A model generated the notes under the pieces. It ran no database searches. It was not told the DNA's origin and worked only from the letters and a program-made list of their open reading frames with translations. Below, in pieces: positions 15,234 through 21,095 of a stretch of DNA of 32,000 bases (position 1 is the stretch's first letter; each line of letters opens with the position of its first letter). Where the stretch lies: the NCBI RefSeq assembly GCF_016127575.1, contig NZ_CP066019.1, positions 1,680,001 through 1,712,000 of the forward strand. The letters are read 5' to 3'. The position numbers and the translations under genes are program-made. This DNA is from Cupriavidus necator (GTDB lineage Bacteria; Pseudomonadota; Gammaproteobacteria; Burkholderiales; Burkholderiaceae).

Positions 15234-18200
15234 TCAGGCGATGCTCACCTTGCCTGCCACGGCATTGCCCCGTGCCAGCACCGGCACCAGCGCTGCACCG
15301 GTATGGCTGGCCGCGTTGCGCGACAAGGCCTCCGGATCGGCCGCGCCGACAATGGCGCCCCCGCCCGCACCGCCTTCGGGGCCAAGGTCGATGATCCAGT
15401 CGGCCTCGGCAATCACGTCGAGGTCATGCTCGATCACCACCACGCTGTGCCCGCCGTCCGTGAGCCGATGCAGCACGCGGATCAGGCGCGCCACGTCGGC
15501 CATATGCAGGCCCACGGTGGGCTCGTCCAGCACGTACAGCGTATGCGGCGCCTTCTGGCCACGTCGCGTGATGTCGTCGCGCACCTTGCTCAGTTCAGTC
15601 ACCAGCTTGATGCGCTGCGCCTCGCCGCCGGACAGCGTTGGCGACGGCTGGCCCAGCGTCAGGTAGCCCAGGCCCACGTCCTTCATCAGCTGCAGCGGAT
15701 GGGCGATGTTCGACATGGCCGAGAAGAACTCCACCGCCTCGTCGATCTCCATCGTCAGCACGTCGCCGATATTCTTGCCGCGCCAGGTGACCGCCAGGGT
15801 CTCGGGGTTGAAGCGCTGACCGTGGCAGACATCGCACGGCACCTTCACATCCGGCAGGAAGCTCATGCCGATGGTGCGCACGCCCTGCCCTTCGCATGCC
15901 GGGCAACGCCCGTCGCCGGTGTTGAACGAGAAACGCGACGCCGTGTAGCCGCGTGCGCGCGCTTCCAGCGTATCGGCAAAGAGCCGGCGAATGGTGTCCC
16001 ACACGCCGATATAGGTGGCCGGGCATGAGCGCGGCGTCTTGCCGATCGGGGTCTGGTCCACCTCCAGCACGCGGTCGATCGATTCCCAGCCGGTGACGGC
16101 GTCGCAGCCATGCCAGTTGTGCTCGACATTGAGCGGCTTCCTGGCGCTCGACTTGGCTGCCTTGGCCTCATCCTTCGCAGCGTTGCGCGCGCGCCGGGTC
16201 GCCGGCGACGACAGCACCGAGCGGCCCACCGCATCGAGCAGGTTGGTCATCAGCACATCGCGCGCCAGCGTGGACTTGCCCGAACCGGACACGCCGGTAA
16301 TGGCCACCAGCCGCGACAGCGGAATGCGCGCCGTCACCTTGCGCAGGTTATGCAGCGACGCGCCGTGCACGGTCAGCCATTCCGGCGGATCGGCGGGCTT
16401 GCCGGCGGCGCCGGGCTTCACCTTGCGCCTGGCCTGCAGCGGATGGATGATCGGGTGCGCCAGGAACTGCCCGGTGGTGGAGTCCGGCGCCGCCGACAGG
16501 TCGGCCACGCCGCCCTGTGCCACCAGCGTGCCGCCGCGCTTGCCCGCACCGGGGCCGATATCGATGATGTGGTCGGCACGGCGGATGGTGTCTTCATCAT
16601 GCTCGACCACCACCAGCGTATTGCCCTTGTCGCCGAGCTTGCGCAGCGCGTCCAGCAGGATCTGGTTGTCGCGCGGATGCAGGCCGATGGTGGGCTCGTC
16701 CAGCACGTAGCAGACGCCCTGCAGGTTGCTGCCCAGCTGCGCGGCCAGGCGGATGCGCTGGGCCTCGCCGCCAGACAGGCTGGGCGCGGCACGGTCCAGG
16801 CTCAGGTAGCCCAGCCCCACTTCCTCCAGGAACTGCAGGCGGCTGCCGATCTCGCTGATGACATCGCGGGCGATCTCGGCATCGCGCCCCGTGAGGCGCA
16901 GGCCATCGACCCAGCGGCGGGTATCGGACACGGTCCACTGCGCTACGTCGACGATTGCATTCTCGTCGAAGGTCACCGCGCGCGCGACCAGGTTCAGGCG
17001 CGTGCCGTGGCAATCCGGGCACGGCGTGTCGACCACGCCTTCGGGCTCCTGCTCTTCCGACGGCAGGCTCTGCTCGCGGCCGCGGTTGTCTTCCACCAGC
17101 ACGGTATCGTCGAACGCCGCGCGCTGCTCACGCGTCAGTGCCAGCCCGGTGCCCACGCAGGTGGTGCACCAGCCGTGCTTGCTGTTGTACGAGAACATGC
17201 GCGGGTCCAGCTCAGGGTAGCTGGTGCCGCACACCGGGCAGGCGCGCTTGGTCGAGAACACCTTGACCTCGCCCACGTGCGCGGTGCCGCCGTTGTGCAT
17301 GGCGTGGTGCAGGCCGTCCAGCGGCGCCAGCAGGTGCATCACGCCCTTGCCGGCCTCAAGCGTCTGCGCCAGCAGCGCGCGCAGCTCGGCCTCGTTCTCA
17401 GGCGAGACCACCAGGTCGCCCACCGGCAGCTCGATGGTGTGCTCGCGGAAGCGGTCCAGCCGCGGCCACGGGTCGACCGGCAGGAATTCGCCATCGACAC
17501 GCAGGTGAGTATTGCCGCGCGCCTTGGCCCACTTGGCCAGGTCGGTATAGACCCCCTTGCGGTTGACCACCAGCGGCGCCAGCAGCCCCACGTGCTGGCC
17601 GCGATGGTCGCGCAGCAGCTGGGCGGCAATCGACTCCGGGCTCTGCGAGGTCACCGGCGCGCCGTCATGCACGCAATGCTGGATGCCCAGCTTGACGTAC
17701 AGCAGGCGCAGGAAGTGCCAGACCTCGGAGGTGGTCGCCACCGTGCTCTTGCGGCCGCCGCGCGACAGGCGCTGCTCGATCGCCACCGTCGGCGGGATGC
17801 CGTAGACCGCATCCACCTCGGGCCGGCCCGCCGGCTGCACGATGGAACGCGCATAGGCATTGAGCGACTCCAGGTAGCGGCGCTGGCCTTCGTGGAACAG
17901 GATGTCGAAGGCCAGCGTCGACTTGCCCGATCCGGACACACCGGTGACCACGTTGAACTTGCCGTGCGGAATATCGACGTTGAGCGCCTTCAGGTTGTGC
18001 TCATGCGCATTGACGATGCGCACCACGTCCTCGCCCTCGACCTCGCGGCGCGCGCGCCGTGCCTGCAGCGCGGCCTGCAGCGGCACGCCTTCGATCTCGG
18101 CGCGCTCGGCGGCCAGCGTGCCGGCTTCGCCGAGCGCCGCGTCATAGTGGATCAGCGCCTGGCCGGTATGCGATTCGGCGCAGCGCTTCACGTCTTCCGG

Positions 18201-21095
18201 GGTGCCGGTGCAGACCACGCGCCCGCCGGCGTCGCCGCCCTCGGGGCCAAGGTCGATCAGCCAGTCCGCGGCGCGGATCACGTCCAGGTTGTGCTCGATC
18301 ACGATCAGCGAATGGCCGCCGTCCAGCAGCTTGCCGAAGGCGCGCATCAGCTTGGCGATATCGTCGAAGTGCAGGCCCGTGGTCGGCTCGTCGAACATGA
18401 ACAGCCGGCGCGGGATGGCGCTGGGCCGGGTCCGCGACGGCGTGGCCTGCACCGCTTCGGCGAGGAAGCCGGCCAGCTTCAGGCGCTGCGCCTCGCCGCC
18501 CGACAGCGTCGGCACCGGCTGGCCCAGCTTCATGTATTCCAGGCCGACATCGACGATGGGCTGCAGCACGCGCAGCACCGCGGGGTCGGCGGCAAAGCAG
18601 GCGGCCGCTTCGCTGACGGTCAGCTCCAGCACGTCGGCAATGCTCAGCAAGCGCGGCGGCTGGCCGGGGGCGGCACGCTCGATCTTCACTTCCAGCACTT
18701 CGGGGCGATAGCGGGTGCCGTCGCAATCCGGGCAGCGCAGGTAGACATCGCTCAGGAACTGCATCTCGACATGCTCGAAGCCCGAGCCGCCGCAGGTCGG
18801 GCAACGCCCGTCGCCCGAGTTGAAGCTGAAGGTGCCCGCGGTGTAGCTGCGCTGCAGCGCCATCGGCGCCTTGGCGAAGATCTTGCGGATCTCGTCGAAC
18901 GCGCCCACGTAGCTGGCCGGGTTGGAACGCGCGGTCTTGCCGATCGGCGACTGGTCGACAAAGACCACATCGTCGACCAGGTCCGCGCCGGTCAGCTGGC
19001 GGAACGCGCCCGGCGACTCGGTGGCCTTGCCGAAGTGCCGCGCCATGGCCGGATGCAGCACGTCCTGCAGCAGCGTGGACTTGCCCGAACCCGACACGCC
19101 GGTCACGCACACCAGCCGCTGCAGCGGGATCTCGACCGTGACGTCCTGCAGATTGTGCTCGGTGGCGCCTTCCAGCACGATGCGCGGCAGCTTGGCATCC
19201 ACCGGTCGGCGCTGCCAGTGCGAGGCATCGGCCACGCGGCGGCGCCCGCCCAGGTACTCGCCGGTCAGCGTGCCGGCATTGCGGATGTCCGCCGGCGTGC
19301 CGTCGAAGATGATATTGCCGCCGCGCTCGCCGGGGCCCGGGCCCATGTCGATCAGTCGGTCGGCAGCCAGCATCACGGACGGATCGTGCTCAACCACCAC
19401 CAGCGTGTTGCCCGCATCGCGCAGCCGGTGCATGGCCTCGACAATGCGGTTCAGGTCGCGCGGGTGCAGGCCAATGCTGGGCTCGTCCAGCACGAACAAG
19501 GTGTTGACCAGCGAGGTACCCAGCGCCGTGGTCAGGTTGATACGCTGCACCTCGCCGCCGGACAGCGTGCGGCTCTGGCGGTCCAGCGTCAGGTAGCCCA
19601 AACCCACGTCGCACAGGTATTTCAGGCGCGTGCGCACCTCGGCCAGCAGCAGCTTGAGGGCATCGTCCAGCATCGCGCTGGGCAGGGTCAGCTCGTCGAA
19701 GAAACGGCGGATGCGCTCGATCGGCAGCAGCATCAGGTCATGCACGGTCAGGCCGGGCAAAGCCTCCAGCCGGGTGCGGTCCCAGTCCACCCCGCGCGGC
19801 AGGAAGCGGCGTGGCGGCGCCAGCACGGCGTCGGCATTGTCCTTCGAGCCCAGGCGCCACAGCAGCGACTCGGTCTTCAGGCGTGCGCCGCCGCAGGTTT
19901 CGCACGGCGTGTAGCTGCGGTACTTCGACAGCAGCACGCGGATGTGCATCTTGTACGCCTTCGACTCCAGGTAGTTGAAGAACCGCATCACGCCGTACCA
20001 GTGCTTGTTCCACTGGCCGGTCCAGTCCGGCGAGCCATGGATGACCCAGTGGCGCTCGGCCTCGGTCATCTCCGCCCAGGGGGTGTCGCGCGGAATGCCG
20101 GCCTTGCCCGCGTAGCGCATCAGGTCGTCCTGGCACTCCTTCCAGGCCGGGGTCTGCATCGGCTTGATCGCGCCCCCGCGCAGCGTCTTGCGCGCGTCGG
20201 GGATCACCAGGCCAAGATCGACGCCGATCACGCGGCCGAAGCCGCGGCAGGTCTCGCACGCGCCGTAGGCGGAGTTGAACGAGAACAGCGCCGGCTGCGG
20301 GTCCGCATAGCGCAGGTCGCTGTCGGGGCTGTGCAGGCCGGTGGAAAAGCGCCATACGGGGCCCTCGTCGCCGTCAGCCAGCACATAGATGTTGACGCGG
20401 CCGCCGCCGCGCTTGAGCGAAGCTTCGATCGCCTCCACCACGCGCACCTTCTCCGCATTGCCGATGCGGAAGCGGTCCGCCACCACATCGAGCAGCTTGC
20501 GTGCGCCGGTGGGCGACTGCACCACGCGCTGCGCCTGCACGCGCGTATAGCCGCTGACCGACAGCCACTGCTGGACCTCATCGTCGGTGGCGGACTCGGG
20601 CAGTTCGACCGGGAAGGTCACCACGAGGCGCGCGTCGTGATGCGGCTGGCCCTCGGCCGTGCGCGCCAGCAGCTCGGCGTAGATGGTTTCGGGCGAGTCA
20701 TGGCGCACCGGCAGCGCGGTCTGCTTGTCGAACAGCTCCGCCGCGCGCGCATAGAGCAGCTTCAGGTGGTCATTCAGCTCCGTCATCGTGCCCACCGTCG
20801 AACGCGAGCTGCGCACCGGGTTGGTCTGGTCGATGGCGATGGCGGGCGGCACCCCGTCCACGCGCTCCACCTGGGGCCGGTCCATCCGGTCCAGGAACTG
20901 GCGGGCGTAGGCGCTGAAGGTCTCGACGTAGCGGCGCTGGCCTTCGGCATAGAGCGTGTCGAACACCAGGCTGGACTTGCCCGAGCCGGACGGCCCGGTC
21001 ACCACGGTCATCTCGCCGGGGCGCAGGTCGAGATCGACATTCTTGAGGTTGTGCTGGCGGGCGCCGCGAATGCGGATTAGCTGCTTGCTCGACAC
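15234..21095 (-). CDS. uvrA: UvrA-family protein, tandemly duplicated (two complete UvrA units in one 1953-aa chain)
   Basis: GTG start at 21095. Four Walker A sites G[PV]SGSGKS (aa 34-41, 666-673, 1052-1059, 1601-1608) and four LSGGE[AV]QR signatures (aa 511, 864, 1440, 1821). UvrA-specific N-terminus [11 protein letters not shown]...[14 protein letters not shown] is repeated as [12 protein letters not shown]...[14 protein letters not shown] at aa ~1029. UvrA zinc-module CxxC pairs are present (details in findings). Unit 1 is about aa 1-985, the linker about 985-1023, unit 2 about 1024-1953. Confidence 0.95.

Follow-up and report, generated by a model that had tools for sequence, protein, structure and literature searches.

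We analysed a window of 32,000 nucleotides from the Cupriavidus necator contig NZ_CP066019.1 (assembly GCF_016127575.1, positions 1,680,001 to 1,712,000), the minus strand of which carries a tandem uvrA gene (uvrA2-type) encoding two UvrA units in a single chain of 1953 amino acids (aa). Based on its translation, the reading frame is continuous over 1953 codons without an internal stop, and the GC content at its third codon positions (GC3) is 0.90, in a window with a GC content of 66–74%. An open reading frame (ORF) of 1656 aa on the opposite strand (16110–21080, plus strand) was rejected as a high-GC artefact, given that codon-position GC favours the minus-strand frame only. Likewise, two separate genes or a frameshift in the linker were ruled out by the continuous frame, the uniform GC3, and the same fused junction in at least 580 genomes of a one-genome-per-species scan. 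Because the identical junction recurs in that many species-level genomes, an assembly error is also excluded as the source of the fusion.

The sequence-only reading had described two UvrA units in one ORF, joined by an Ala/Arg/Glu-rich linker of about 40 aa and bearing four Walker A sites and four LSGGE signatures, and this anatomy was recovered in full (Table 1). Each half passes the TIGR00630 model (cut-off: 729.8 bits; unit 1: 922 bits, unit 2: 958 bits, whole protein: 1873 bits), aligns to the other half (identity of 42% in the 627 C-terminal columns and of 32% in the 307 N-terminal ones), and aligns to solved UvrA structures, with E-values against 2r6f of 1e-223 (unit 1) and 6e-231 (unit 2). 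With the class I chains 2r6f, 3uwx, 3zqj, and 3pih, unit 1 shares 37–41% identity and unit 2 shares 39–40%. The equivalog model NF001503 (PRK00349; cut-off: 1147 bits) is passed by the whole protein (1911 bits), whereas each unit alone stays below it (unit 1: 932 bits, unit 2: 985 bits). All four ATPase sites match the consensus, with Walker A motifs at aa 34, 666, 1052, and 1601, LSGGE motifs at aa 511, 864, 1440, and 1821, and four DEP Walker B motifs. Using E. coli UvrA as the alignment reference, the Walker A lysines, the wedge tyrosine (E. coli Y60), G502, and the cysteines of zinc modules 2 and 3 (Zn2 and Zn3) are intact in both units. When modelled separately with AlphaFold2 (AF2), unit 1 reached a mean predicted local distance difference test score (pLDDT) of 87.4 and a predicted template modelling score (pTM) of 0.81, and unit 2 reached 83.7 and 0.78, so that in these models both are confident UvrA protomers. 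Foldseek placed the unit 1 model on 2r6f_A (template modelling [TM] score 0.81/0.88), and the best matches of the unit 2 model were UvrA chains.

Table 1 Features of the tandem uvrA locus, in window coordinates (Zn1: zinc module 1; NBD-II: second nucleotide-binding domain).
Feature	Position	Strand	Remarks
Tandem uvrA gene (uvrA2-type), 1953 aa	15234..21095	-	GTG start at 21095, stop at 15234-15236
Unit 1 (aa 1-985)	18141..21095	-	Complete UvrA unit: both ATPase sites, Zn2, Zn3, insertion domain
Inter-unit linker (aa 986-1023)	18027..18140	-	10 Ala, 7 Glu, 5 Arg; least conserved internal segment
Unit 2 (aa 1024-1953)	15234..18026	-	Both ATPase sites, Zn1, Zn2, Zn3; without insertion domain
Unit 1 UvrB-binding-type domain without Zn1 (aa 118-272)	20280..20744	-	
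Unit 1 helix aa 217-227, R218/E221/E224	20415..20447	-	Equivalents of E. coli R216/E219/E222 (UvrB/Mfd interaction surface)
Unit 1 Zn2 (CETC 280-283, CETC 398-401)	19893..20258	-	Around 114-aa insertion (DNA-binding) domain
Unit 1 extra segment after Zn2 (aa 411-460)	19716..19865	-	About 30 aa longer than in E. coli
Unit 2 Zn1 (C1141, H1143, C1286, C1289) and UvrB-binding-type domain	17226..17678	-	
Unit 2 Zn2 (CTTC 1310-1313, CPDC 1359-1362)	17004..17168	-	45-aa acidic stub in place of insertion domain
Unit 2 Lys/Ala-rich insert after NBD-II Walker A (aa 1632-1665)	16101..16202	-	Poorly conserved, low model confidence, lineage-specific
LexA (SOS) box	21150..21165	.	CTGTATGGATGTACAG (gene-strand reading); 55 nt 5' of uvrA start codon
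HigB-like toxin (higB)	21321-21599	+	PF05015, 54 bits
HTH_3 antitoxin of higBA pair	21611-21946	+	
116-aa ORF downstream of uvrA	14796-15146	-	Without family match
Exo_endo_phos (exonuclease III-like) gene downstream of uvrA	13911-14771	-	

The two units differ from each other in the elements through which UvrA contacts UvrB and DNA. A segment of the size of the UvrB-binding domain is present in both (unit 1: 129 aa, unit 2: 141 aa). The residues of unit 1 at E. coli C120, H123, C253, and C256 are D, T, S, and S, with all four Zn1 ligands gone, and the Pfam UvrA_inter model scores 21 bits there, under its cut-off of 23.3, versus 83 bits in unit 2. AF2 predicts an alpha/beta fold without zinc for this domain of unit 1 (pLDDT 82–95). 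Zn1 is kept in unit 2, its histidine being one residue closer to the N terminus than in E. coli. The UvrB-binding-type domain of unit 2 has a canonical N-terminal half (...RVDG), but the R216 and E222 positions are substituted. A gap-free alignment between the anchors HTIE and LE..G.G sets VRVVEAIE of unit 1, with R, E, and E in register, against ELRALLA of unit 2. The E. coli R216A/E222A mutant is cited as defining the UvrB interaction surface (PMC3025350, citing Pakotiprapha 2009), and removal of residues 131–248 from E. coli UvrA abolishes nucleotide excision repair (NER; PMC3025350). The insertion domain is likewise one-sided: the Zn2 CxxC pairs enclose 114 residues in unit 1 and 45 in unit 2, compared with 125 in E. 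coli UvrA. Unit 1 matches Pfam UvrA_DNA-bind (PF17755) with 39.8 bits over profile positions 1–65 of 110, and a PF17755 search of unit 2 gave no match; AF2 models the stub of unit 2 as one helix followed by a disordered stretch (pLDDT <50). In signature domain II, two of four arginines are kept in unit 1 (R722L, R730T) and all four in unit 2 (equivalents of R712, R722, R724, and R730); their combined mutation in E. coli abolishes DNA binding (PMC3025350).

These comparisons bear out what the sequence-only reading had said of the zinc modules, of the full-length insertion segment in unit 1, and of its near-complete deletion in unit 2. Its idea of complementary losses stands in part: the divergence is asymmetric, and unit 1 also keeps the R216/E222-type UvrB contacts that unit 2 lacks. 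The corresponding division of labour, with unit 1 as the DNA half and unit 2 as the UvrB half, finds no support in that form, because the insertion domain and the UvrB contact helix are both located in unit 1 and the complete DNA-binding arginine set in unit 2. Judged from the alignments, the asymmetry is a mosaic: the insertion domain and the docking helix occur in unit 1, where Zn1 is missing, and Zn1 and the signature-II patch occur in unit 2, where the insertion domain is missing.

To follow this mosaic across the clade, residues were tabulated in 240 members, comprising 120 Burkholderiaceae orthologues and 120 more distant proteins. The equivalents of K37, Y60, G502, and K646 are invariant in both units (240/240). 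The R216 and E222 equivalents are kept in unit 1 of every member, whereas unit 2 has E, Q, or A at the former position and D, G, A, or T at the latter in about 240 of 240. Conversely, R730 is kept in every unit 2 and replaced by T, M, or V in every unit 1, and the R722 equivalent of unit 1 is L or Q in Burkholderiaceae. The insertion-domain stub of unit 2 measures 29–48 aa throughout (240/240). Zn1 ligands of unit 1 are found in none of the 120 Burkholderiaceae orthologues versus 118 of the 120 other members. Because distant relatives share the stub while keeping Zn1 in unit 1, the loss of the insertion domain from unit 2 is, on this tabulation, ancestral to the clade, and the loss of Zn1 from unit 1 looks like a later event encountered just in the Burkholderiaceae sampled, a sample without unit 1 sequences from Rhizobacter, Ideonella, Piscinibacter, or Rubrivivax. 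Identity across Cupriavidus, Burkholderia, Paraburkholderia, and Ralstonia is 78–97% in the domains (87% in the UvrB-binding-type domain of unit 2 among orthologues) and 56% in the linker. As read from these values, strong purifying selection has acted on both halves during their asymmetric divergence, and the linker and tails are weakly constrained. The conserved asymmetric divergence supports the earlier suggestion of a covalent pseudo-heterodimer with specialised halves.

The LexA box that the sequence-only reading placed in front of the gene is an exact one. It is the sole exact CTGT-N8-ACAG in the window, where 0.25 are expected; at least one such match arose in 23 of 100 shuffled windows, so a single match is not rare, and the box is convincing because of its position and conservation and not because of its mere occurrence. 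LexA boxes also precede the orthologues of C. necator (L001), C. metallidurans (L005, two boxes), and B. territorii (L003), and a box with one mismatch precedes that of Paraburkholderia sp. SOS3 (L007); the flanking genes of the box-bearing orthologues differ although the box is kept. In all, a box of this beta/gamma-proteobacterial type is conserved in five orthologous promoters, those of three Cupriavidus species among them. The two boxes upstream of uvrA2 on chromosome 2 of C. metallidurans CH34 are perfect (TACTGTATATTTGTACAGTA and CACTGTATGTTCATACAGTA, at L005 2976–2991 and 3135–3150), and their number suggests tighter SOS control in CH34 than in this window. The conserved SOS core of multi-chromosome beta-proteobacteria includes uvrA (PMC3323433).

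We propose that the protein is an SOS-inducible, hard-wired asymmetric UvrA pseudo-dimer that acts in excision repair and offers one UvrB docking site, a proposal to which we give an even chance. The two units would fold back on each other through the flexible linker of about 40 residues into a pseudo-dimer resembling the UvrA dimer, which would bind DNA in a shared groove while four working ATP sites probe for damage. Because fused units are freed from having to stay identical, they could decay reciprocally, and the residues retained in the two units do follow a reciprocal pattern. The docking helix of unit 1 and signature domain II of unit 2 would form one complete composite UvrB loading site, and the mirror site, composed of the unit 2 helix and signature domain II of unit 1, would be degenerate in both parts. 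With one complete and one degenerate site, a single functional loading site for UvrB (or Mfd) is proposed per chain, and a single UvrB would be loaded per damage-recognition event in a fixed orientation. A UvrA2:UvrB1 complex of M. tuberculosis on damaged DNA is a solved structure. The fusion would also block mixed dimers with the canonical UvrA1 from the main chromosome. The single insertion domain may tune specificity instead of abolishing function, because E. coli UvrA from which this domain is deleted loses damage discrimination in global repair and still works in transcription-coupled repair (PMC3025350).

Several points weigh against this proposal. The literature consulted contains no experiment with a tandem UvrA, so that intrachain pairing is a prediction; a canonical uvrA in this genome is assumed from the C. 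metallidurans genome paper; and the upstream regions of the orthologues examined in Ralstonia solanacearum and Steroidobacter have no LexA box. The literature used provides only two experimentally defined UvrB-interface residues, and the four arginines are contacts to DNA and not to UvrB, which makes the argument for one complete composite site an analogy. In addition, the UvrB-binding-type domain of unit 2, with its 87% conservation and far better UvrA_inter match (83 versus 21 bits), may bind UvrB in another way or bind another partner. This same domain speaks for a tandem UvrA that is symmetric in function, in which both units bind UvrB (unit 2 via a diverged surface) in a UvrA2B2-like manner and the differences between units are tolerated drift. 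A fully symmetric form does exist, both units being complete in 32 of the 107 tandem clusters described below, and deletion of the insertion domain from Geobacillus UvrA is cited in PMC3025350 as causing no defect on short oligonucleotides. Nevertheless, we consider functional symmetry unlikely: the R216/E222 equivalents are invariant in unit 1, but missing and variable in unit 2, R730 is gone from unit 1 clade-wide, and the one-sided losses are ancient and fixed instead of drifting.

The best 120 matches to the protein are all full-length orthologues (1945–2005 aa, 84–97% identity) from Cupriavidus, Paraburkholderia, Burkholderia, and Ralstonia, each of them annotated as "excinuclease ABC subunit UvrA". 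The fused junction occurs in further genera (Caballeronia, Trinickia, Mycetohabitans, leaf-nodule "Candidatus Burkholderia", Rhizobacter, Ideonella, Piscinibacter, and Rubrivivax), and its location in finished genomes is chromosome 2, chromosome 3, or a megaplasmid. In the Burkholderiales species that carry it, the gene usually accompanies a canonical uvrA1. The junction protein is 99% identical in Cupriavidus sp. TMH.W2 (chromosome 2) and C. alkaliphilus. As far as the junction itself is concerned, the fusion persists in the reduced genomes of Ca. B. brachyanthoides and Ca. B. crenata (L048, L056). According to its genome paper (PMC2864759 and its supplement), C. metallidurans has uvrA1 (Rmet_0313) on chromosome 1, uvrA2 (Rmet_4549) on chromosome 2, and only one uvrB; we found that its chromosome 2 holds the fused orthologue (91.7% identity across the junction). 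R. solanacearum is credited with two uvrA genes in the literature. Secondary replicons of Paraburkholderia and Burkholderia also carry an extra UvrA-like gene that matches the N-terminal part of unit 2 only (44–48% identity; H25, H26, H31), which judging by these matches is probably a third, single-unit paralogue. Hundreds of genomes have an annotation for the tandem gene, and a single genome paper calls it uvrA2. Searches of full-text literature, which did not extend to reviews of UvrA-paralogue classification (where duplicated UvrAs may form a class of their own), yielded no description of a tandem or fused UvrA, no experiment on one, and, in line with the sequence-only reading, no assigned biochemical function.

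Conservation on this scale also bears on whether the gene is a redundant or decaying duplicate without a distinct role, or an anti-phage ATPase of the ATP-binding cassette (ABC) class as in MADS. The loss of Zn1 from unit 1 could be taken as decay, and PADLOC matched the tandem protein to mad3 (508 bits) and mad8 (204 bits). Both ideas were already disfavoured and appear highly improbable, since identity stays at 84–97% over about 1950 aa across genera, all catalytic motifs are intact, and the gene is present in at least 580 species. Moreover, E. coli UvrA scores higher against mad3 (342 bits) than either unit (unit 1: 250 bits, unit 2: 267 bits), and MADS membership was rejected on the ground that the mad3 and mad8 matches reflect generic UvrA homology. 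A PADLOC scan of the two downstream ORFs (13911–14789 and 14796–15146), the only neighbours scanned, gave no match. The E. coli uvrA gene (L004:5050–7872) matches the MADS models strongly, and UvrA genes could thus be miscalled as defence components.

To place the protein in a wider family, a junction-spanning query was compared exhaustively with 1.84 billion cluster representatives (50% identity clusters). The best 150 matches, which were those examined, are mostly double-length (1500–2340 aa), and most of the shorter ones resemble fragments of such proteins. Splitting 107 complete tandem clusters, a lower bound for the number in existence, into units revealed that the nearest relative of a unit 1 is another unit 1, and that of a unit 2 another unit 2, in nearly every cluster; given this unit-by-unit orthology, the fusion is therefore ancient. 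Over core columns, both units share 51–54% identity with E. coli UvrA and 49% with each other, and their nearest neighbours are P0121_1 (unit 1, 78%) and P0121_2 (unit 2, 74%). The combination found here, a full first unit and a second unit without insertion domain ("full + ID-less"), is the commonest form of the family (40 of 107 clusters) and hence not rare, followed by full + full (32) and tandem class II (19), class II UvrA being defined as lacking both Zn1 and the entire UvrB-binding domain (PMC9328131, PMC3167621). Five clusters are ID-less + full, four are class I + class II, and other mixes are rarer. From these counts, fusion has repeatedly been followed by domain loss on one side. 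When 30 "full + ID-less" clusters were used for a profile search, it reached named relatives in Steroidobacteraceae, uncultured Burkholderiales, and Verrucomicrobiae. Among the tandem proteins with other architectures (P0215–P0270, P0125, P0129, P0140, P0158), the tandem class II forms are about 1600 aa long and lack the UvrB-binding domain in both units, and the same set includes proteins of 2334–2343 aa, the reverse arrangement with an ID-less first unit, and class I + class II fusions. The extra segment after Zn2 of unit 1 is a subfamily marker common to the nearest clusters. The Lys/Ala-rich insertion after the second Walker A of unit 2, which the sequence-only reading had also pointed out, has a comparably long counterpart in only three others among the 107 cluster representatives; a tie between this insert and the loss of the insertion domain was dismissed, as the two do not correlate and the insert is lineage-specific.

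The spacer between units is at least 21 aa long in all 105 clusters measured. This length and its poor conservation are as expected for a tether, and they count against an interchain arrangement, in which two chains associate, like with like or crosswise, into an assembly of four units with up to two docking sites. Sequence does not fix intramolecular pairing, and UvrA dimer geometry is plastic, several conformations having been solved; like-with-like pairing, however, would give no relief from symmetry and would not readily account for the reciprocal decay that many lineages display. We regard interchain pairing as very unlikely. If the single-chain pseudo-dimer is generalised, tandem UvrAs might be natural single-chain dimers in which one UvrB-loading/DNA-clamping assembly has been repeatedly stripped, the Burkholderiales form being a UvrA'1:UvrB1 machine that sets the helix and insertion domain of unit 1 against signature domain II of unit 2. 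We offer this extension tentatively and consider it possible, though not probable.

The neighbourhood of the gene provides no partner. An operon or conserved partner gene was ruled out by the neighbours, which differ among Cupriavidus, Ralstonia, Burkholderia, Paraburkholderia, and Steroidobacter; the tandem uvrA is monocistronic, and its synteny is not kept between genera. The order of the 116-aa ORF and the Exo_endo_phos gene is conserved in C. necator and differs in other genera, synteny of the latter gene being restricted to Cupriavidus, and a functional link of either to the tandem uvrA is probably absent. On the other side, the higBA pair (21321–21946) is divergent from uvrA, and the 225-bp intergenic region between them holds the LexA box. 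A glycogen/trehalose-type cluster at 2–11676 (plus strand), with three alpha-amylase-family genes and a glycogen phosphorylase, is syntenic with C. necator and unrelated to uvrA.

How many UvrB molecules a UvrA dimer needs (A2B2 or A2B1) in bacterial excision repair, and what each insertion and UvrB-binding domain contributes, has long been debated, and a symmetric homodimer is hard to dissect in that each mutation occurs twice. A natural pseudo-dimer with each element left in just one half would be evolution's own asymmetric-mutant experiment, repeated across hundreds of species and several independently arisen architectures, and it could settle the question of UvrB number. If the Burkholderiales form is indeed a UvrA'1:UvrB1 machine, one UvrB and one insertion domain would suffice for damage hand-over, and a fixed polarity or strand choice might follow, e.g., in Mfd-coupled or SOS-specific repair. 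These proteins of about 1950 aa may be the SOS-inducible UvrA of Burkholderia, Ralstonia, and Cupriavidus, which would bear on mutagenesis and drug tolerance in pathogens and industrial strains. With regard to annotation, the plain label "excinuclease ABC subunit UvrA" hides the double architecture, and the curators' double-length model covers a different subfamily.

Compared to class I UvrA (E. coli, Geobacillus, M. tuberculosis, T. maritima), each unit shares the two ABC modules, the signature domains, Zn2, the Zn3 hairpin, the wedge tyrosine, and a UvrB-binding-type domain, and LexA control, here predicted from the box, is as in E. coli uvrA. In contrast to the class I homodimer, the chain contains two units, of which unit 1 lacks the Zn1 ligands and R730 (and R722 in Burkholderiaceae), and unit 2 lacks the insertion domain and the R216/E222 contacts. 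By unit-wise orthology, the stub, and the unit-1-only contacts, the protein belongs to the "full + ID-less" tandem clade (Steroidobacteraceae, uncultured Burkholderiales, Verrucomicrobia, and metagenomic clusters), with which it shares the unit order, the stub of unit 2, R216/E222 in unit 1 only, the loss of R730 from unit 1, and the post-Zn2 segment of unit 1. It differs from these relatives in that Zn1 of unit 1, kept in 118 of 120 of them, is lost in Burkholderiaceae. The chlamydial double-length UvrA (NF001885/PRK00635, a model of 1809 positions) is likewise a double UvrA of about 1800 aa recognised by curators, and it illustrates that a tandem UvrA can bear annotation as an organism's excinuclease subunit A; to our knowledge, Chlamydia has no second UvrA. 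Because the protein scores 1078.6 bits against NF001885, under the cut-off of 3054, it represents a subfamily distinct from the chlamydial one; the nearest other tandem clusters also fall below (1107–1683 bits).

Class II UvrA (D. radiodurans UvrA2, DrrC, Ecm16) resembles the tandem protein in being a second paralogue, with a role that is uncertain or lies outside NER, in addition to a canonical UvrA, and in missing Zn1, here in unit 1 only. Class II proteins are, however, homodimers without a UvrB-binding domain, whereas both units here keep one (129 and 141 aa). This rules out class II membership, and Foldseek matches to class II chains are weaker (TM 0.57–0.66). The tandem protein could still act in the manner of DrrC, Ecm16, and UvrA2, as a UvrB-independent guardian that displaces DNA-bound toxins or adducts by ATP-driven action without excision. 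It is a second UvrA paralogue on a secondary replicon, tandem class II forms occur in the same superfamily (19 clusters), and Ecm16 gives echinomycin resistance without UvrA, UvrB, UvrC, or UvrD (PMC9328131). Retention of the UvrB-binding-type domain in both units, the invariant UvrB/Mfd contacts of unit 1, a varying neighbourhood with no biosynthetic cluster nearby, and LexA control, which fits repair, make a guardian role distinctly unlikely.

Asymmetric ABC proteins, such as heterodimeric or single-chain transporters, have one consensus and one degenerate composite site: after two homologous halves have been joined or have become separate genes, the sites to which both contribute decay reciprocally, and one complete site is left. 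In the tandem UvrA, by contrast, all four ATP sites match the consensus and the asymmetry lies in the UvrB-docking and DNA-contact elements, so that the likeness between the two systems is one of analogy.

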